NCBI GenBank assembly: GCA_027330985.1
Contig: DAHVZI010000002.1
Span: 1 to 11,161, forward strand
Direction: 5' to 3'
Origin: Candidatus Uhrbacteria bacterium
Lineage (GTDB): Bacteria; Patescibacteriota; Patescibacteriia; 2-12-FULL-60-25
DNA length: 11,161 bases
The notes under the pieces are model-generated. The model did not search any database. It had not been told where the DNA came from and saw only the letters and a program-made list of their open reading frames with translations. The position numbers and the translations under genes are program-made. This document shows, piece after piece, positions 1-9,005 of this stretch (position 1 is its first letter; each line of letters begins with the position of its first letter).

Positions 1-581
<581 letters not shown>

Positions 582-867: not shown

Positions 868-1164
868 ATGGAAGACGAGGATCTCTACAGGGCGATCGAA
901 TTTTTGGAACGCGGACAGGCGCTGGTGACTCCGGCACACGCCGTGATAAAGAAATTCGGTGGCCAGTTGGTGGCCGTGCGTGTGGGTTGTGGCGAGCCTG
1001 TAGTCTACGAGCTCCGTAGCTCGTGGCACGCCGTGGAGTGGATGAACCGTTGGGATATGCGGCTCTGGCCGACGGTCGAGGCTATAACCAAACAGCTGCC
1101 GAATGACATGGATGAGGTCCATTATGTAATCCGGTTATTGCTCGACCAGCCGACACTCGGCTAG
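868..1164 (+). CDS. Hypothetical small protein (98 aa), no recognisable family
   Basis: ATG at 868 is preceded by GGAGG at 7-nt spacing and by the promoter above. The ORF runs to TAG 1162-1164. The ORF-track start at 790 is an upstream in-frame alternative, but the SD supports 868. An overlapping minus-strand ORF (655-1122) lacks such signals. Confidence 0.55.
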   Translation: MEDEDLYRAIEFLERGQALVTPAHAVIKKFGGQLVAVRVGCGEPVVYELRSSWHAVEWMNRWDMRLWPTVEAITKQLPNDMDEVHYVIRLLLDQPTLG

Positions 1165-1310
1165 GCTCAAGGAGCCCCTGCATCGCTGAGGATACGACCA
1201 TCGGTCGCTCCTTGCGGTGCTTTTCGTTTGTTAATAAGAAAGACGCACCGGAAAGACTGGCAGTAACGGGCGTTTTTGTTTTTCGGGTCGGTTGGATATG
1301 ATGTGGCAGT

Positions 1311-2468
1311 ATGGATTTTAATAGACCCACAATACGCAAAGAATATGTACCCAAGATGGGTAACCGCTTGGCGGGAGGGGATACGGTACGGACACCAGAC
1401 AGGGTGCCTTCGGGAGTCGAGGTTTCTTTGGAGATGGCGCTTAAGGCGTTGCTTGCGCGGGCCGAGAAGGAAAATCCGCATATCGCAAGGCTGTCTTTGC
1501 GTCTTCTTTCCAAGGGGGGAGAGAACATAGTGCTTGAATCCAGTGGTGCGAAGCACAAGGGTACGGTGTATAAGTTCAATTTCTTGAATTCATGGCCGGT
1601 CCTGATAGCGTCGAGCATGGGGCAAGAGGCGTTTGATGCGGCGGTCTCTGCGATGAAGGAGAAACAATCTACGCGAGAAGCCGACAATAAGGAGTTGCGT
1701 CAGTATTTCGGCGACACGGCGGTCATCCCGCAACGGTCTTTCGTCTGGAATGTGCCGGTCAGCTTCGATTTGGCGAAAAGCCTGATGCCAAAGCAGAAAC
1801 TCCACGCAGTCGGGGCAGCCGAATCGATACCTGTTTGGGTGACGATGCAGCGCAAGATGGATCTGAGAAGTGATGACGTGCTTTCGGTGACCGGATACTA
1901 TCCTGAGGATCAGTACAACCGGCCGCCGGGCGAAAAGCCTACAATATCCGACGAAGCCTATGATTTGGCTCACGAGATCCTGATCGGGCACGAACCGTTC
2001 GGTACGATGGACCATGAAAAGATGGATGCGATCGTCGCCATGTACCCTGATCTCGGGACATTAAATATGATGTGCCATGAGAGCCCGGCTTTCAGGGACA
2101 GATTGGCTGATTTGACGTCACGCTTGATCTCTTATGCCAAGGAGACAGGCAAGGTGCTGGATCTTGCCGGGGATAACAACCTATTGTTGGAGAGGAAAGA
2201 AAAAGGGTGGAAGACCATATTGCTGGATGTGTTGCCAGGCATAGACATAAAATTCGATGATATCCTGCCTGTGTTAGAGAAATACAAGACGGCGGATGGC
2301 CCCTCAAGGATGCGCTTGGGATATGCCTTGAATGTCTTGAATACGGTCAGGTTCAGTAATGCACTCGCGGAGATAAGCGGAGTCAGGGAACGAATTACGA
2401 TCGACGGTTTGGAGCAAGTCCCGGCAGCTTACTGGCGAGAGAATCTGCCGCCTTTGCTGCAAAGATGA
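1311..2468 (+). CDS. Hypothetical protein, paralog A (385 aa). Possible protein-kinase-like fold.
   Basis: Long ORF starting at ATG. It is clearly homologous to the next ORF along its full length (VYKFNFLNSWP/VYKVSYFESLP, YFGDTAVIPQRSF/YFGFNAVPPQRFV, IPVWVTMQRK/LPVWVCVQRK, GYYPE, SYAKETGKVLDLAGDNNLLLERKEKGW/TYTKETGELMELAGEENAVLLKEKAGW, LNTVRFSNALAEI/LNTLRFINALALI). This divergence between copies supports + strand coding. The kinase-like motifs are: Gly-rich KGGENIVL; VYK (K at nt 1572-1574); LDLAGDNNLLL (D at 2160-2162), which fits the HxDhxxxNhh catalytic loop; and ILLDVLP (D at 2226-2228), which is DFG-like. Confidence 0.8.
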   Translation: MDFNRPTIRKEYVPKMGNRLAGGDTVRTPDRVPSGVEVSLEMALKALLARAEKENPHIARLSLRLLSKGGENIVLESSGAKHKGTVYKFNFLNSWPVLIASSMGQEAFDAAVSAMKEKQSTREADNKELRQYFGDTAVIPQRSFVWNVPVSFDLAKSLMPKQKLHAVGAAESIPVWVTMQRKMDLRSDDVLSVTGYYPEDQYNRPPGEKPTISDEAYDLAHEILIGHEPFGTMDHEKMDAIVAMYPDLGTLNMMCHESPAFRDRLADLTSRLISYAKETGKVLDLAGDNNLLLERKEKGWKTILLDVLPGIDIKFDDILPVLEKYKTADGPSRMRLGYALNVLNTVRFSNALAEISGVRERITIDGLEQVPAAYWRENLPPLLQR

Positions 2469-2469
2469 T

Positions 2470-3585
2470 ATGGGAAGAATAGAGAAAATGTTCAGAGAGA
2501 CCAAAGTCGCGGCGAAAGCCACCTTCAATAGGGCGAAGCGCGGTTTTTCTCCGATCGAGCCCGCGATGGCGGCAGCCGTGGATACTGCGCTGACGAACCA
2601 GAAACATTGGCCGTATCTGGCGGCGAGAGGCGGGGAGCATCTGGTTTTTTCGTTCGATGATCCACGCTTGCAGGGCATAGTCTATAAGGTGAGCTATTTC
2701 GAGAGCTTGCCGATTTTGAGCGCTTGGTATGAGGGCGAAGATGCCGTTGAACGAAAATTGGAGTCCATGCATGAGGAGATGGACCAGCGTACGGCGAAAC
2801 TCAAACGGATGCGTGAATATTTCGGTTTCAACGCTGTGCCGCCGCAGCGTTTTGTGATCAAAAAATTGCCGGTGACCCATGCGTTGATCATGGCTCTGAA
2901 AGCGGAACATCTAGTGCAGGGAATGGATTTGCCTAAAGAGCTGCCGGTTTGGGTGTGCGTCCAAAGAAAAATCAAGAAACCTGAAGGGCAGACCTATCCT
3001 TTGAACGGATATTATCCGGAAAGCAAGAAAAGGCTTGGCAGGTCTTGGAGCAAGGAGGATATCGAGACTTATGACGCAGCGCATGATGTATTGTTCGGTG
3101 GTCCGTTGAGTGGGATGGATCAAGCGTCGCAGGAGCGATGGGTATTGTTGGAATATCCGGAGCTTCTTCCATTGTGGCAGGCGATGATAGGAGATCCGGC
3201 CCTCAAGAAAGAATTGCAGGATGTCGTCAAGAAGCTCATCACTTATACTAAAGAAACTGGTGAGTTGATGGAGTTGGCTGGGGAAGAGAATGCGGTTCTG
3301 CTTAAGGAGAAAGCCGGGTGGCAGGTCAAGTTGTTCGACGCTTTGCCCACGAAGGGCTTAAATCTTGAGAGATTCAGGGAAGTAACGGCGAAGTTAAAGT
3401 CCGGTAGGTCTTTGACGATGCCACAGAGATATGTGGCGATGAATGGTCTGAATACCTTGCGTTTCATCAACGCTTTGGCGCTGATCGCGGAAGTCCCGGA
3501 GAGGATGGTAGAGCCTGATGTATTATCCGTACCAGCTGAGACTTGGCGGCAAGAGATATCTAAAATCTTCAAAGACAAGACATAA
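2470..3585 (+). CDS. Hypothetical protein, paralog B (371 aa). Kinase-like fold with acidic substitutions in the catalytic-loop motif.
   Basis: ATG 2470 lies 1 nt after TGA 2466-2468 of paralog A (translational coupling). It has the same motif set: RGGEHLVF, IVYKV, MELAGEENAVLL (D->E at both Asp positions, Asn kept), KLFDALP (Asp kept). The gene ends at TAA 3583-3585, directly followed by a hairpin terminator. Confidence 0.8.
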   Translation: MGRIEKMFRETKVAAKATFNRAKRGFSPIEPAMAAAVDTALTNQKHWPYLAARGGEHLVFSFDDPRLQGIVYKVSYFESLPILSAWYEGEDAVERKLESMHEEMDQRTAKLKRMREYFGFNAVPPQRFVIKKLPVTHALIMALKAEHLVQGMDLPKELPVWVCVQRKIKKPEGQTYPLNGYYPESKKRLGRSWSKEDIETYDAAHDVLFGGPLSGMDQASQERWVLLEYPELLPLWQAMIGDPALKKELQDVVKKLITYTKETGELMELAGEENAVLLKEKAGWQVKLFDALPTKGLNLERFREVTAKLKSGRSLTMPQRYVAMNGLNTLRFINALALIAEVPERMVEPDVLSVPAETWRQEISKIFKDKT

Positions 3586-3647
3586 CAAAACATCCTCTTG
3601 CGAGGATGTCTTGTATGGTGGACGGCAGAGGAGTCGAACCTCTGACC
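3582..3647. repeat. Direct repeat copy 1 (66 nt; terminator hairpin plus 32 nt of tRNA 3' end). It matches copy 2 except for differences within GTCTTGTA/GTTTTGCA.
   Basis: ATAACAAAACATCCTCTTGCGAGGATGTCTTGTATGGTGGACGGCAGAGGAGTCGAACCTCTGACC compared directly with 3971-4036. Confidence 0.9.
3591..3615. terminator. Rho-independent terminator, bidirectional. Hairpin CATCCTC-TTGC-GAGGATG flanked by A-rich 5' and TCTTGT 3' sequence.
   Basis: 7-bp perfect stem with U-rich tails on both strands. It sits immediately after the paralog B stop (+ strand) and immediately after the CCA end of the tRNA-like fragment (minus strand). Confidence 0.6.
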
Positions 3648-3678
3648 TCCCCGGTGTCCACCGGGGCGCTCTAATCAA
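3616..3678 (-). pseudogene. Degenerate tRNA fragment (D-loop to CCA, ~63 nt). The acceptor 5' strand and D-stem 5' strand are missing, and the anticodon arm is non-canonical.
   Basis: The minus-strand sequence reads ..TTGATTAGAGCG-CCCCGG-TGGACA-CCGGGG-AGGTC-AGAGG-TTCGACT-CCTCT-GCCGTCC-A-CCA. From the variable loop to CCA it is identical to tRNA-Val at 4005-4081, and the D-loop is 11/12 identical. The anticodon arm is replaced by a 6-bp GC stem with a 6-nt loop still centred on GAC. No 5' acceptor strand (GGACGGC) lies upstream, because the GIY-YIG stop codon is at 3690. Confidence 0.6.
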
Positions 3679-3970: not shown

Positions 3971-4036
3971 ATAACAAAACATCCTCTTGCGAGGATGTTT
4001 TGCATGGTGGACGGCAGAGGAGTCGAACCTCTGACC
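3971..4036. repeat. Direct repeat copy 2 (66 nt), overlapping the terminator and the 3' 32 nt of tRNA-Val
   Basis: See copy 1. Confidence 0.9.
3981..4004. terminator. Rho-independent terminator downstream of tRNA-Val (same hairpin as 3591-3608, followed by TTTTG on + and preceded by AACAAAA)
   Basis: CATCCTC-TTGC-GAGGATG-TTTTG. On the minus strand the tRNA CCA end is followed by the hairpin and a TTTTGTT run. Confidence 0.6.
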
Positions 4037-4081
4037 TTCACAATGTCAATGTGACGCTCTAACCAACTGAGCTAGCCGTCC
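4005..4081 (-). tRNA. tRNA-Val (anticodon GAC), CCA encoded
   Basis: The minus-strand sequence is GGACGGC-TA-GCTC-AGTTGGTTA-GAGC-G-TCACA-TTGACAT-TGTGA-AGGTC-AGAGG-TTCGACT-CCTCT-GCCGTCC-A-CCA. This gives a 7-bp acceptor stem, 4-bp D stem, 5-bp anticodon stem with 7-nt loop (T-T-GAC-A-T), 5-nt variable loop and 5-bp T stem with TTCGA. Confidence 0.9.
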
Positions 4082-4241: not shown

Positions 4242-4814
4242 ATGGAGGCGAAAAGACCAAAACAAAAACGTACTGTTAGAAAGACACCAAAAGCATCGGG
4301 TTCACCGATCCCTTGCGGTCCTACTGGCGGCTCCATGGAAGACATGCCGAGTACATGCGGGCATTATGGTTGTACCGGTGGTACATGCAACGTCAGGTAT
4401 GTCGGTCCGACGACACATATCCGTGATCATCACATCGTACATGCAGCGAGGGGCGCCTCCAATGTCTGGACGGCCGCAATCGTAGCTGGTTTGGCGGTGG
4501 TGTTGACTGGCGCGATCGCCTATACCGCACTAGGCGCTGATTATAACCAACCGGCGATCAATAACATGGGTGGTCAATTCAGCTTGATCAACCAAAGGCT
4601 TGATCGCATGGAAGATATGATGCAGGCAGTGATGGACAAGCAGCAACAACCCGTCGTGACACAGAATCCAGCGCCTACCCAATCGAGCAATGATGCATGT
4701 CTGTCGACCTGTTCGGATGCGACGCTGGCATGTTTCGATAAAGCCGGAGATGACGTGCCTGCAAGGCAGGATTGTTTGGCTACGGACAGGGCCTGCAGGG
4801 CAGCTTGTAAGTGA
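4242..4814 (+). CDS. Hypothetical single-pass membrane protein (190 aa) with a basic, Cys/His-rich cytoplasmic N-terminus and a 6-Cys C-terminal domain
   Basis: ORF with ATG start. The hydrophobic segment VWTAAIVAGLAVVLTGAIAYTAL is a predicted TM helix. The N-terminal part carries CGPTGG...CGHYGCTGGTC and HIRDHHIVH. The C-terminus carries CLSTCSDATLACFD...CLATDRACRAAC. No strong SD; the start could alternatively be the internal Met at ~4335. Confidence 0.55.
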   Translation: MEAKRPKQKRTVRKTPKASGSPIPCGPTGGSMEDMPSTCGHYGCTGGTCNVRYVGPTTHIRDHHIVHAARGASNVWTAAIVAGLAVVLTGAIAYTALGADYNQPAINNMGGQFSLINQRLDRMEDMMQAVMDKQQQPVVTQNPAPTQSSNDACLSTCSDATLACFDKAGDDVPARQDCLATDRACRAACK

Positions 4815-4832
4815 TTAACGAGGACATAAAAC

Positions 4833-4860
4833 AAAAACTTCCCGACATGGGAAGTTTTTG
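4833..4860. terminator. Bidirectional rho-independent terminator between convergent genes (AAAACTTCCC-GACAT-GGGAAGTTTTT)
   Basis: 8-bp stem flanked by A-run on the 5' side and T5 on the 3' side. It lies between stop 4814 (+) and stop 4862 (-). Confidence 0.65.
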
Positions 4861-4861
4861 T

Positions 4862-6007
4862 TCAGGTGCGCGTGTTCTTCAGCGCTGACATGGTCTGTTT
4901 AAGCTTGTCGATTATCTGATGGCTCGTCGTCACGATATCGCCGCCGGGCGGGAAATCGAGTTCCGCATATTCACGCGTACCTGTCGCGCCGAACGGGCGG
5001 GCCAGTTCCGCGGCGGAAAGCGTGCCATTGGCATGGATCATGGCTTTTCCGGATTCGGAGATCAATACGATGACTTTAGCCTCAGGGGCATAAGAGATGA
5101 GTTCTTTGGCGACTCCGTTCAGGTCGTCCAATCCGGTGCCGGTCTCTACGGCGTCTTGGTTGGTCAGGATGCTCCAGACCAAGCCGAGGTCGCGGTCCTG
5201 CTCCAGATGCGTAAGCGCTTTGCCCCAAAGTTTGAGCGTCGGGACTGTGCGTGTCCGCCAGATGCCATGTACTATCTCTTCGCGGCGCGCTCCGATGGCC
5301 AAGAGTTCGGAAGCCTTACCAAGGGTCAGGGGGGTCACGTTGGACGAGCGGAAAGATTGGGTGCGATAGATCATGCCGCTCAAAAGCGCGGTCGCGACGT
5401 CTTCATCTATCAGGTTCTTGTTCCATTCCTTGAACAGGTCGAAGAGTATCTCCGTGCTGGATGACGCATTCAGGTCCACGAGATTGATTTGGCCCCAGTG
5501 TTCGTTCGCGGGATTGCAGTCGATGTTTATGATCGGTAGACGATAGATGAAATCTGCGTGGTCGCGGAAGAGCGCACCAAGCGAATGGATATCCGGGCAG
5601 TCCAGCGCGATGATGAGGTCGAAACGGTCTTCGCCATGGCGGAAGCTTACGTCGCGCGGGGACCACTCTCCGGCTTTGGGTATGAGCGTGACGGTCAGTT
5701 GGCCGTCCTTCACGTCATAGTGCAATTCCTCTAGAGGGTTATGCGAAACGTCTAAAGATATCTCAAAAGCCCGTACTGCGCCCATGGTGTCTTTCGTCTT
5801 ATCCAGGCCCGGTAAGAAGTGCGGTTTGTTTTCCGTAGTAAGTCCCTTGGCCACCGTTTCGTATTGTTTGTTAAGTTTGGCCAAAAACAGCCCTAATGCG
5901 GCTGCGGCAGACAAACTGTCCGTTGTCCAGGGCTCTTGGGTGACGATGAGGGTCCGTTTAGAGCGGGAAATCGCCTCAATCACTTGTCTTTTTACTTCGA
6001 AACCCAT
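4862..6007 (-). CDS. DHH/DHHA1-family phosphoesterase homolog (NrnA-like, 381 aa) with apparently degenerate catalytic motifs
   Basis: The architecture and spacing match NrnA-type DHH proteins: LIVTQEPWTTDSLSAAAALGLFL (motif I region), LIIALDCPD (motif II), NIDCNPANEHWGQINLVDLNASSSTEILFDLF (motif III region; the canonical IDHHPN reads IDCNPA), and C-terminal FGATGTRE where DHHA1 normally has GGGH. The start is set at the ATG whose complement lies at 6005-6007. The ORF-track start at 6061 is a TTG 18 codons upstream. Confidence 0.6.
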   Translation of the reverse strand: MGFEVKRQVIEAISRSKRTLIVTQEPWTTDSLSAAAALGLFLAKLNKQYETVAKGLTTENKPHFLPGLDKTKDTMGAVRAFEISLDVSHNPLEELHYDVKDGQLTVTLIPKAGEWSPRDVSFRHGEDRFDLIIALDCPDIHSLGALFRDHADFIYRLPIINIDCNPANEHWGQINLVDLNASSSTEILFDLFKEWNKNLIDEDVATALLSGMIYRTQSFRSSNVTPLTLGKASELLAIGARREEIVHGIWRTRTVPTLKLWGKALTHLEQDRDLGLVWSILTNQDAVETGTGLDDLNGVAKELISYAPEAKVIVLISESGKAMIHANGTLSAAELARPFGATGTREYAELDFPPGGDIVTTSHQIIDKLKQTMSALKNTRT

Positions 6008-6142
6008 GTTCAGATAGATTAGATGATTGGCTAGCTTACATTTTGTTCGGCATAAGGTCAAGGGTTTTTTGAAGTAAAATAGGGGTTTTTTGTAAATAAT
6101 AGGTTTTACATGATTAAAGCCTCAAATAGGCAAATAATCAGG

Positions 6143-6171
6143 TTGCAGTAATGGCATAAAGCCAGTAATAT
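6143..6171 (+). promoter_or_regulatory. Sigma70-like promoter for valS: TTGCAG (6143-6148), 17-nt spacer, TAATAT (6166-6171)
   Basis: Hexamers with ideal spacing in an AT-rich divergent intergenic region. The predicted TSS is only ~6 nt before ATG 6184 (short or leaderless 5'UTR, no SD). Confidence 0.35.
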
Positions 6172-6183
6172 CCATTGGTTGAT

Positions 6184-8862
6184 ATGCAAGAAAACGAAAA
6201 ATGGCCAAAAGCCTACGATTCCTCGCAAGTGGAGAAGGATATCTATAAACACTGGGAAGAAAGCGGCTATTTTAACCCGGATACGCTACCGGAACGGAAT
6301 CGTGGTGGAGAGATGTATAGCATCATGATGCCGCCGCCAAATGTCACGGGAGTCTTACATTTGGGCCATGCGATGGAGGATACGATCATGGACATCGCTG
6401 TCAGATTTCAGAGGATGCGCGGTAAGAAGGCGTTGTTGTTGCCAGGTACCGATCATGCGGCCATCGCGACGCAATCAAAAGTAGAAAAGTTATTGATGAA
6501 GGAGGGCGTCAAATATCCACGCGAGGAATTGGGGCGTGAGAAACTGGTGGAGAAGATCAGGGAATTCGCGGAGAACTCCAAGTCCACAATCTTGAGTCAG
6601 ATCAGGGTAATGGGCACAAGCTGTGATTGGTCGCGTTTAGCCTACACGCTTGATGAAGCGAGGAATCGAGCGGTCAACGAATTATTCGTCAGGATGTACA
6701 AGGATGGTTTGATTTATCGGGGATATAGAGTGGTCAATTGGTCCATCAAGGGTCAGATCACCTGTTCAGATGACGAAATCGTTTACATAGAAAGACCGGC
6801 TAAACTTTATACATTCAAATACAGCAAGGATTTCCCTATAACGATTGCGACTACTCGTCCAGAGACGAAATTAGGGGACACGGCAGTGGCGGTGCATCCG
6901 GATGATGAACGTTATAAAAAATACGTTGGTCAGACGTTCACTGTCGATATAGGCGCAGCGAAACCATTATTGATAAAGATCATCGCAGACGAAAGCGTAG
7001 AAAAGGATTTTATGACTGGAGCTTTAGGGGTGACTCCTGCTCACAGCGCGGTAGATTTTACGATGTATGAAAAACAGAAAGCCAAGAATGATCCTATCGG
7101 TATCGTACCTGTGATTGGTACGGACGGCAGGATGACAGAAGCGGCAGGCAAGGATTATGTCGGCTTGACCGTTGAAGAAGCCAGGGAAAAATTCGTGTCT
7201 TGGCTGAAGACGCGGGGTTTACTGGAGAGCGAAGAAGATATCACACAAAACGTCGGCACGTCTGATCGTTATGAGGACGTCGTGGAATCTTTGCCCATGA
7301 CGCAGTGGTGGCTGGATATGAACAGGGAGATTCCAGGGCGTGGAAAGAGTTTACGCGACCTGATGCGCGAAGCCGTAACCACGGGATTAGACGGAAGTGC
7401 GGAGAAGAAAATCAGGATCATGCCTGAACGTATCGTCAAGGAGTACTTGGATCGCATTGATAATTTGCGCGATTGGTGTTTGTCTAGGCAGTTGTGGTGG
7501 GGGCATCGGATCCCGGTCTGGTACAAAAAACAACCCGCCGTTACGAACGACGAATCTAGCGAGAAGGAGATGTATGTCGGAGCAGTTGCTCCCGAAGGAG
7601 AAGGGTGGGAACAGGATCCGGACACGTTGGATACGTGGTTTTCGTCAGGTTCTTGGACTTTTTCGACTTTGGGCTGGCCAGAAATAACGGAAGATCTGAA
7701 GCGCTATCAACCGACAAGCTGGATGCAGATGGGTTATGAATTGAGATATTTATGGATGATGAGGATGATTTTGATGCATACCTACGTGCTAGAAGAGATT
7801 CCGTTCAAGGATTGCTATATCCATGGACTATTGAAGGATGAACATGGCAAGAAATTCTCGAAGTCTTCCGGCAACGGCATCGACCCGATCGAAGTCGTGG
7901 AGAGGTATGGATGCGACGCGCTTAGATTGAGTTTGATTTTGGGGATTTCACCAGGAAATGATTCCAAGTTCTATCTGGAGAAGGTAGAGGCAAATAGGAA
8001 TCTGGTGAATAAGATTTGGAATATTTCGAGATTCATCGTGTCATCGACTCAGGATACCGACTCCGCTTCGCGTGTGGAGGCAAAAACCCTGGCGGACAAA
8101 TGGCTGTTGGCGAGACTCGCAGAGATAGAGTCTAGGGTAACGGAGATGCTTGAGAGCTATCAGTTTTCACAGGCGGGCGAGATGTTGCGCGACTTTACCT
8201 GGAGCGACTTAGCGGATTGGTACTTGGAGATTGCGAAAATCGAGAAGGGCAAGGAAGCGATATTGCGTCACATCCTCGAGACGGTTTTGAAATTATGGCA
8301 TCCGTTCATGCCGTTCGTGACGGAATACATCTGGGGATTGATGGGGAATAAGGATTTGATAGTGGCGGAGTGGCCAAAGGATGACGTACTGCGTACCGAG
8401 TACCGCGAAACGGCAGAATTCGAAACAGTCCGCAATCTGGTGACCGATATTCGTAGATTGCGGGCGGAGCAGGGAGTCGAACCGGCGAAATTTATAGAAG
8501 CTGGCGTGGCAGCAAGCGGTGACGATCAGCAGCGTCTGGAAGAAAACGTTGAAGTAATCAAACACTTGGCGCGTCTGTCGGAAATGAAATTAGTCGCGAC
8601 AGTGCCGGAAGGTTGGGCGACTACCGTTTCCGGTGTGATGACTGTCGGCATAAACGTCGCAGGTACGGTCGATAAGGAGAAGGAGAGAGCTAAAGCGGAA
8701 AAGGAAATCTTAGAGCTCAAGCCGTATATCGAAGCGACCCGGGCAAAATTAGCGAACCAGGAATTCGTGTCAAAAGCTCCGGAGAAGGTTGTGCAGGGGA
8801 TGAAAGACAAGTTGGCGGAGGCGGAGGCTAAGCTTAAGGCGCTTGAAGATACGTCGACTTAG
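6184..8862 (+). CDS. valS: Valine--tRNA ligase (valyl-tRNA synthetase), 892 aa
   Basis: Class I aaRS HIGH motif PPNVTGVLHLGHAME, KMSKS motif KFSKSSGN, editing and anticodon-binding regions, and the ValRS-specific C-terminal coiled-coil (KEKERAKAEKEILELK...KLAEAEAKLKALE). The track start at 6175 is TTG; the first ATG is 6184. Confidence 0.9.
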   Translation: MQENEKWPKAYDSSQVEKDIYKHWEESGYFNPDTLPERNRGGEMYSIMMPPPNVTGVLHLGHAMEDTIMDIAVRFQRMRGKKALLLPGTDHAAIATQSKVEKLLMKEGVKYPREELGREKLVEKIREFAENSKSTILSQIRVMGTSCDWSRLAYTLDEARNRAVNELFVRMYKDGLIYRGYRVVNWSIKGQITCSDDEIVYIERPAKLYTFKYSKDFPITIATTRPETKLGDTAVAVHPDDERYKKYVGQTFTVDIGAAKPLLIKIIADESVEKDFMTGALGVTPAHSAVDFTMYEKQKAKNDPIGIVPVIGTDGRMTEAAGKDYVGLTVEEAREKFVSWLKTRGLLESEEDITQNVGTSDRYEDVVESLPMTQWWLDMNREIPGRGKSLRDLMREAVTTGLDGSAEKKIRIMPERIVKEYLDRIDNLRDWCLSRQLWWGHRIPVWYKKQPAVTNDESSEKEMYVGAVAPEGEGWEQDPDTLDTWFSSGSWTFSTLGWPEITEDLKRYQPTSWMQMGYELRYLWMMRMILMHTYVLEEIPFKDCYIHGLLKDEHGKKFSKSSGNGIDPIEVVERYGCDALRLSLILGISPGNDSKFYLEKVEANRNLVNKIWNISRFIVSSTQDTDSASRVEAKTLADKWLLARLAEIESRVTEMLESYQFSQAGEMLRDFTWSDLADWYLEIAKIEKGKEAILRHILETVLKLWHPFMPFVTEYIWGLMGNKDLIVAEWPKDDVLRTEYRETAEFETVRNLVTDIRRLRAEQGVEPAKFIEAGVAASGDDQQRLEENVEVIKHLARLSEMKLVATVPEGWATTVSGVMTVGINVAGTVDKEKERAKAEKEILELKPYIEATRAKLANQEFVSKAPEKVVQGMKDKLAEAEAKLKALEDTST

Positions 8863-8979
8863 GGTTAAAAAGATAAGCTGTAGGTCATTATGTTGCTAAA
8901 TAAATTACGTATGACTTGGTCAAGTTATAACGAGCTGACTGCCTGACTCAGAGACCAGGGCAACTTAATTTTGTAATCA

Positions 8980-9005
8980 AAATCCGCCCTGGTGGCGGAT
9001 TTTGC
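8980..9005 (+). terminator. Rho-independent terminator after valS (AAATCCGCC-CTGGT-GGCGGATTT-TGCGTT)
   Basis: 9-bp stem plus U-rich tail. It lies 118 nt after the valS stop and 12 nt before ATG 9017. Confidence 0.55.

Follow-up and report, generated by a model that had tools for sequence, protein, structure and literature searches.

A tandem gene pair from Candidatus Uhrbacteria points to an uncurated family of predicted kinase-fold proteins encoded near 16S rRNA and tRNA genes

The stretch of DNA analysed here, called the window, comprises 11,161 nucleotides (positions 1 to 11,161 of contig DAHVZI010000002.1, assembly GCA_027330985.1) of a Candidatus Uhrbacteria bacterium. It carries two adjacent genes, named paralog A and paralog B in the following, which represent a previously undescribed and uncurated family inside the well-known protein-kinase-like (PKL) superfamily. 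The explanation that we consider probable is that both are anciently diverged members of a PKL-fold family, occurring mainly in Patescibacteria, which would use ATP in the way of minimal atypical kinases. The pair and its immediate surroundings are located as follows.

1262-1310, plus strand: leader 5' of A, beginning with GTTTTTGTTTTTCGGGTCGGTTGGATATGATG, a homolog of the leader in front of B in the sister genome L003
1311-2468, plus strand: paralog A, open reading frame (ORF) of 385 amino acids (aa) with ATG start, predicted kinase-like fold
2466-2472, plus strand: A/B junction TGA-T-ATG (stop codon 2466-2468, ATG at 2470, spacer of 1 nt)
2470-3585, plus strand: paralog B, ORF of 371 aa with ATG start, predicted kinase-like fold

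An initial annotation, made from the sequence alone, had described a tandem pair of full-length paralogs with about one-third identity by eye. Both points hold: the two ORFs follow each other on the same strand at 1311-2468 and 2470-3585, and BLASTP aligns A with B over 369 columns at 30% identity (E 1e-54). An E-value this low across the full length marks them as genuine paralogs, far beyond chance similarity. The spacer of a single nucleotide is compatible with translational coupling; A and B would then be read from one transcript, with translation of B coupled to that of A. Relatives of A at the 99% level were found only in assemblies of the same species.

The kinase-like motifs quoted in the initial annotation were all recovered from A and B, and in the order given there.

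1512-1535, plus strand: Gly-rich loop KGGENIVL of A between strands beta1 and beta2, with the invariant G69 and with G70, E71 and V74
1566-1574, plus strand: V-Y-K of A in strand beta3, with K88; 122 of the 123 homologs have Lys at this site
1893-1907, plus strand: GYYPE of A
2160-2180, plus strand: catalytic-loop-like DLAGDNN of A, after helix 259-279
2217-2231, plus strand: ILLDV of A, with the DFG-like Asp D306 (123 of 123) directly after strand beta8
2626-2649, plus strand: Gly-rich loop RGGEHLVF of B
2680-2688, plus strand: V-Y-K of B, with K73
3007-3021, plus strand: GYYPE of B
3271-3291, plus strand: ELAGEEN of B, with E268 in place of the conserved Asp, E272 at a variable site and N274 as the invariant Asn
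3328-3342, plus strand: KLFDA of B, with the DFG-like Asp D290

A YFGxxAVxPQR block is likewise present in both paralogs. Conservation was counted in an alignment of 123 diverse homologs, to which all such counts refer, and sites are numbered as in A. Four residues, G69, N290, D306 and N350, are invariant (123/123). Conservation of at least 90% was found for V74, V86, K88, F133, G134, P149, Q180, E199, D284, G287, W300, R347 and A353, and of these G287 (121/123), W300, Q180, E199 and R347 each reach at least 95%. The second Gly of the loop, G70, is kept in 100 of the 123 homologs. Site 284 is occupied by Asp in 112, by Glu in six and by Ala in five homologs; site 288 is variable (mostly Ser, Lys, Glu, Arg, Ala or Thr, and Gly in the loci of the GGGN subclade). 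The initial annotation had named missing conservation of the V-Y-K, D-L-x-x-x-N and downstream Asp residues as a reason to abandon the kinase-like reading. Since the motif residues turned out to be the most conserved ones of the family, with the Gly of the loop, the Lys, the loop Asp and Asn and the downstream Asp either invariant or conserved to at least 90%, this objection falls away. A correction concerns the catalytic-loop-like Asp and Asn, which are present, but with the spacing D-x5-N (N290 in A, N274 in B) and not the reported D-x4-N. In the mechanism that we propose, Mg-ATP would be bound via the Gly loop, K88/K73, N290/N274 and D306/D290 (A/B), D284 of A or E268 of B would act as base, and the gamma-phosphate would be transferred or hydrolysed.

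AlphaFold2 (AF2) models based on the 123-homolog alignment were run independently for the two proteins and reached a predicted local distance difference test score (pLDDT) of 90.8 and a predicted template modelling score (pTM) of 0.88 for A, and of 93.5 and 0.90 for B. The predicted architecture is bilobal, with a five-stranded sheet and one long helix in the N-lobe and a helical C-lobe, and the core elements follow the order beta1-loop-beta2-beta3(K)-long helix-beta4-beta5 ... helix-loop(D..N)-beta7-beta8-D. In the model of A, an N-terminal helix comes first, the Gly loop forms the beta1/beta2 turn, K88 lies within strand 85-90, and a helix of about 30 residues follows beta3. Several helices come after beta5, the last of which is the long helix 259-279 preceding the D284...N290 loop; strands 291-296 and 299-304, D306 and a helical C-terminal part with R347 and N350 complete the model. 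Only about eight residues lead from D306 to the next helix, and in both models the C-lobe is short, all-helical and lacks an activation segment. A Foldseek comparison with the PDB returned exclusively kinase-fold proteins among its top 50 matches, with weak E-values (at least 4e-3); they include inositol pentakisphosphate (IP5) 2-kinase, the aminoglycoside phosphotransferase (APH) APH(2''), HipA, Hanks kinases, ATM/mTOR and Fam20. Together with the conserved catalytic residues, these models give good support to the predicted PKL fold, as had been proposed from the motifs; membership in any known PKL family is not supported by the sequences. Traits of the family are the D-x5-N spacing, long insertions in the N-lobe and between the lobes, and a C-terminal LNxxRxINALA helix.

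The distribution of the family was assessed by an exhaustive hidden Markov model (HMM) search with an A+B profile. With a cut-off of E<=1e-3 this gave 409 representative clusters (50% identity level), of which 252 remain at E<=1e-10 and 57 at E<=1e-30. Carriers are mainly metagenome-assembled genomes (MAGs) of Patescibacteria, the candidate phyla radiation (CPR). A word-indexed search retrieved near-identical copies of A plus three B-type proteins only, and one B-type relative is annotated as 'hypothetical protein, Patescibacteria group bacterium'. Neither A nor B has a match in Pfam or NCBIfam (searched to E 10), in PADLOC (to E 1) or in PHROGs (to E 0.1), and PDB sequence searches by phmmer and hmmsearch with A, B, the 123-sequence profile and the consensus gave nothing significant, which agrees with the initial annotation, where the family was not recognised. 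The only trace left by the profile searches suggested there is an N-lobe match, below the threshold, to PF10707 (YrbL-PhoP_reg), counted among the PKinase-clan families (PMC9758233). The family consensus scores E 2.2e-5 and 24.6 bits against this model (gathering threshold 31.5), the alignment covers profile positions 7-54 of 185, that is, the G-loop to beta3 only, and individual members match in 4 of 123 cases at E >= 0.0019. Aligning the family profile with E. coli YrbL by hhalign gave no alignment of the catalytic motifs; moreover, YrbL, a protein of unknown function, has 210 aa as compared to 340-450 aa in the family. In the literature no kinase-like family of this sort was found for Patescibacteria/CPR. 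The family is widespread, with a catalytic set that is complete and a kinase fold that is predicted with confidence, and has neither a Pfam or NCBIfam entry nor a solved relative. The genomes of Patescibacteria are very small, and for a large part of their conserved genes no function is known.

Some carriers bear other taxonomic names. The MAGs with loci L007, L008, L010, L012, L019, L021, L024, L030, L032 and L033 are labelled Methylomirabilis (for example L007) or 'uncultured Gammaproteobacteria' (for example L012). The 16S rRNA genes of L007, L012, L024 and L033 match the Patescibacteria 16S rRNA gene of L003, with 89-93% identity for L007 and L012, the two complete genes. These labels are probably taxonomic mislabels or a result of mis-binning.

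Among the kinase-fold proteins, the best-scoring Foldseek matches are IP5 2-kinase and APH(2''), with which the family has the helical C-lobe in common. This, the short all-helical C-lobe lacking an activation segment and the position of the gene directly after D-Ala-D-Ala ligase in three Bdellovibrionales-labelled MAGs would suit a small-molecule kinase like APH, choline kinase or inositol-phosphate kinase, with a metabolite, an antibiotic or a lipid or cell-wall precursor as substrate and two specificities in the pair. We give this explanation a low chance. The searches returned no match to the APH, choline-kinase or Ins_P5_2-kin Pfam models, the sequence L-D-L-A-G offers neither the His-x-Asp 'Brenner' motif nor the HxDxxxxN motif of APH (no His stands two residues before D284), and no recurrent metabolic, resistance or inositol-phosphate gene context was seen. 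Outside the syntenic block described below, the protein neighbours are heterogeneous and without a functional theme (SBP_bac_5, DsbA, SecA, Ddl, malic enzyme, bactofilin). The three Bdellovibrionales-labelled loci, L031, L034 and L035, have the order D-Ala-D-Ala ligase, 3-nt gap, family gene and tRNA-Ala(CGC), with the two coding regions at 4729-5859 / 5863-7008.

With the Hanks-type Ser/Thr kinases the family shares the order of Gly-loop, Lys, catalytic Asp/Asn and metal-binding Asp. Of the Hanks hallmarks looked for, namely HRD, an activation segment with APE, the substrate-binding subdomains (alphaF-alphaI) and PF00069, none was found, as there is no Pfam match to E<=10 and the loop reads L-D-L-A-G. 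Paired paralogs with one altered catalytic residue nevertheless recall the kinase/pseudokinase pairs of this group, and the initial annotation had considered an active kinase together with a pseudokinase because both loop Asp residues appear as Glu in B. A would then be the enzyme, and B an allosteric partner or scaffold that has lost catalysis through the Asp-to-Glu change. Both substitutions are indeed present (E268 and E272), but only the one at site 284 concerns a conserved position. Site 288 is variable and the B orthologs P0003 and P0004 have Ala there, so only one of the two changes is meaningful, and a relevance of D288->E was rejected. The remaining change speaks for a pseudokinase insofar as E268 replaces a catalytic-loop Asp conserved to 91% and the B clade (P0003, P0004 and window B) has Glu as a fixed residue at this site. 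By the usual bioinformatic rule, loss of any one of the VAIK Lys, the HRD Asp or the DFG Asp indicates a pseudokinase, and B would be flagged accordingly; the tight tandem layout, furthermore, suggests stoichiometric co-expression.

However, Glu is a conservative replacement that can still serve as a base, and those residues of B with a sole known role in nucleotide or metal binding are kept (G54, K73, N274 and D290), so that B differs from the altered copies of Hanks-type pairs by keeping everything but this one Asp. Glu at site 284 is also seen in other lineages, namely in P0006, in P0046 and in P0010, which is the L013 pair's first gene, and all three retain K, N and D. Deviations were counted over 36 alignable columns conserved to at least 70% in the other 119 members: A keeps 35 of them (deviating at H72N) and B keeps 32 (L114M, L267M, D268E and G341E). 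Compared with its ortholog in L003, B shows a dN/dS of 0.12, which indicates purifying selection, and in L003 the corresponding locus has B but no A. For most family members, too, the locus holds just one copy. Taken together, the kinase/pseudokinase pair is improbable, and the evidence argues for B as the functional, ancestral resident and A as an extra old paralog, an arrangement that an enzyme with a degenerate partner does not fit. B would be the ancestral, syntenic copy and probably still catalytic with Glu as general base, and A an additional old paralog kept or acquired in this lineage. The copy with Glu is best seen as the gene conserved at this locus and not as a degenerate partner.

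The phylogeny agrees with an old duplication as proposed at first. In neighbour-joining (NJ) trees, A and B were sisters in only 2 of 100 bootstraps, with a support of 100 for the B clade, and a recent tandem duplication was rejected on this basis. The sister genome L003 (GCA_031082005.1) encodes a B that is 86% identical to that of the window. At this locus B is the sole family gene, directly between the 16S rRNA gene and tRNA-Val(GAC), and paralog A, a 98-aa ORF and a GIY-YIG gene of the window are missing. B is thus not merely a regulatory partner of A; it is the one that relatives have kept here. The leader at 1262-1310 in front of A is homologous to L003 7955-8000, in front of a B-type gene, which indicates that the coding sequence of A was cleanly gained or lost between leader and B. 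Only the window and L003 were found to share a leader or RNA element in front of their first kinase-like gene.

Tandem pairs occur in three lineages only, the window genome, L012 and L013, as seen by a family HMM search of 35 loci. The spacing is tight in all three pairs (junctions at 7110/7112 in L012, again with a 1-nt spacer, and at 1652/1657 in L013). The second genes of L012 and L013 group together as a clade (73% bootstrap), and so do their first genes (57%). Bootstraps for the tandem-copy groups of interest are only 27-73%, so the placement of A and B relative to the copies of L012 and L013 is without firm support. The order 16S - small ORF - kinase - kinase - tRNA-Val(GAC) - Cys-rich membrane protein is common to the window and L012.

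The family genes have a characteristic address close to structural RNA genes.

1-580, plus strand: fragment of a 16S rRNA gene, inside which the window starts (Rfam RF00177, 549 bits)
4005-4081, minus strand: tRNA-Val(GAC), conserved downstream neighbour of the B-type gene, displaced here by a GIY-YIG insertion
L003 9152-9228: tRNA beside the family gene
L014 7241-7327: tRNA beside the family gene
L031 7142-7215: tRNA beside the family gene
L008 7329-7402: tRNA beside the family gene
L037 6195-6271: tRNA beside the family gene

In 17 of 29 distinct other loci scanned, a same-strand 16S rRNA gene was found 0.1-4 kb upstream of the kinase-like gene (among these loci L003, L006, L007, L009, L012, L016, L017, L022-L029, L033), and many contigs begin inside the 16S gene. 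No 23S gene was found in any scanned locus, which makes the 16S gene appear unlinked from 23S; cases of unlinked rRNA genes are known (bioRxiv 10.1101/705046). A tRNA gene follows within 350 nt of the stop codon in 24 of 32 family genes, as compared to 16 of 298 other ORFs of the same loci (Fisher p 2e-19). Much of this order belongs to a shared syntenic block: KsgA ... 16S - (tRNA-Pro) - (HU or small ORF) - kinase - tRNA-Val - Cys-rich membrane protein - (SpoU methylase) - DHH - valyl-tRNA synthetase (ValRS). The adjoining tRNAs vary with the context (Val-GAC, Val-CAC, Leu-CAG, Ala-CGC, Gln-TTG, Arg-TCG). Outside the block, paralogs lie beside tRNA-Leu(CAG) in L014, L015 and L019, tRNA-Ala(CGC) in L031, L034 and L035, tRNA-Gln in L008 and tRNA-Arg(TCG) in L037, a locus of a distant subfamily; L032, L038 and L039 are without an adjoining tRNA, and in L040 the tRNA is 0.9 kb away. 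Counted by context, tRNA adjacency is about 5/9, as compared to some 5% in the background (binomial p about 5e-5), with the independence of the contexts being arguable.

A side observation concerns the tRNA cassettes themselves. Beside the kinase-like gene, tRNA-Val(CAC) and tRNA-Pro(GGG) cassettes are inverted in place between close genomes with collinear flanks (L022 7133-7334 vs L026 7085-7286; L025 6963-7040 vs L028 7120-7197; L022 4108-4186 vs L026 4296-4374). All four combinations of orientation occur, each orientation with its own terminator hairpin at the 3' end of the tRNA, and no long flanking inverted repeats were found around the inversions.

On account of the fixed placement at 16S and tRNA genes, an RNA-, ribosome- or translation-linked target is our leading guess for the family, as judged by gene order. 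The address between a 23S-less 16S gene and a tRNA gene is a concrete lead towards an RNA- or ribosome-stimulated ATPase or kinase activity. RIO and Bud32 are minimal PKL cores without activation segment, which the models suggest for A and B too, and A and B may work in the manner of these minimal atypical kinases. The RIO P-loop GxGxxGKES can be compared to GGE[HN] of the family, with Gly-x-Glu at the P-loop tip in both; the partner of RIO is the pre-small-subunit (pre-SSU) rRNA, and RIO works largely as an ATPase (PMC5815136). Bud32, a subunit of KEOPS, serves the synthesis of the tRNA modification t6A, likewise largely as an ATPase (PMC3814370). These RNA partners parallel the 16S and tRNA gene neighbours of the family, and a weak structural ranking has RIO and Bud32 as its putative closest structural relatives.

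Since these RNA roles coincide with the gene order and with the weak structural ranking, the family may be the CPR-specific counterpart of RIO/Bud32, an RNA-dependent atypical kinase or ATPase acting on the small ribosomal subunit or on tRNA and kept near the 16S and tRNA genes by co-expression or by action on their products. The tandem pairs of the window, L012 and L013 would then be two specialised paralogs, possibly forming a heterodimer. This specific form of the idea, drawn by analogy, has an outside chance in our view. RIO and Bud32 are archaeal and eukaryotic, whereas the family is bacterial (CPR). Family members are about 150 residues longer (an extra N-terminal helix, the roughly 30-residue helix that follows beta3, inserted helices separating beta5 from the catalytic loop, and the family-specific C-terminal helix) and have D-x5-N instead of D-x4-N. 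Neither Kae1/TsaD nor other KEOPS partners are adjacent, and the RIO1 and Bud32 Pfam models match neither A, B, the 123 members nor the consensus. If true, the analogy would imply that these bacteria have a maturation factor for ribosomes or tRNA whose like has until now been known from archaea and eukaryotes alone.

The same surroundings could be read in another way, with the translation apparatus as the target of a HipA-like toxin kinase or defence module and the ORF at 868-1164 as antitoxin. HipA is among the Foldseek matches, three lineages have a small conserved ORF in front of the kinase gene, and ValRS and a tRNA gene are nearby. We regard this as extremely unlikely, because A and B have no match in Pfam, PADLOC or PHROGs, HipA_C and HipB/HTH domains were not found, most loci lack the small ORF, and the gene stands in stable syntenic housekeeping surroundings across genomes whose 16S is about 89-94% identical to that of L003. 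No family relatives were found on the viral contigs scanned, and a phage or defence origin was rejected.

Several points weigh against an ATP-using family with an RNA-linked role and a still catalytic B. The RNA link is drawn from gene order, much of it one syntenic block in related genomes, and the co-transcription and coupling of A and B from their spacing only. All profile matches to the family lie below the curated threshold. Asp-to-Glu exchange at the catalytic base usually cripples Hanks-type kinases, and B could be much less active. Moreover, the alphaC-like helix 105-133 has no acidic residue conserved to at least 70% that could pair with the beta3 Lys (E117 is Glu in 41 of 123 homologs), and the Asp-to-Asn spacing is +6, not +5. 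The lack of a conserved alphaC Glu and the atypical spacing, along with Ala at site 284 in 5 of 123 homologs, would also be in line with a non-catalytic kinase-fold family that binds a nucleotide as a structural or sensing module and keeps its residues for binding. This is very improbable, as the Mg-binding Asn and Asp (123/123), the near-invariant Lys and the loop Asp at 91% form the pattern of active PKL enzymes.

Further genes of the window are listed below.

868-1164, plus strand: small ORF of 98 aa between 16S and A, a called gene in L001
3690-3956, minus strand: GIY-YIG nuclease gene of 88 aa (PF01541) between B and tRNA-Val
4242-4814, plus strand: Cys-rich membrane protein of 190 aa with the N-terminal Cys/His motif CGH..C...C.VRY.GP..H.RDHH..H and a predicted membrane helix
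9017-10537, plus strand: ORF of 506 aa with a partial thymidylate-synthase domain (272-400) and a C-terminal PterinBD-DUF4346

The 98-aa ORF has conserved counterparts at the corresponding place in L006 and L012 (41-50% identity by tblastn); it is not present in L003 or most other loci and has no Pfam, PADLOC or PHROG match. The Cys-rich protein belongs to no Pfam family and is a conserved downstream neighbour in 22 loci (cluster c1). In the 506-aa ORF about 270 residues preceding the domains are without a match; this ORF is present in L001 and absent from L003, where a NUDIX gene directly follows ValRS.

Comparison of the window with L001 (GCA_027425155.1) gave 98.2% identity overall and 204 differences, 72 of which fall into the first 250 bases (16S), 50 into 501-1000 and 42 into 8501-9000. 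Against the 16S of L003, L001 is 99.5% identical and the part in the window only 88.8%, which suggests that the 16S assembly of one of the records is chimeric or collapsed. The GIY-YIG gene is flanked by a direct repeat of about 97 nt (3582-3678 and within 3971-4081). The left repeat, 3582-3678, is a partial duplicate of the terminator hairpin and the 3' part of tRNA-Val, and L003 has neither the GIY-YIG gene nor the duplicate. This looks like a small mobile insertion into a tRNA gene, by which the 3' part of the tRNA was restored.

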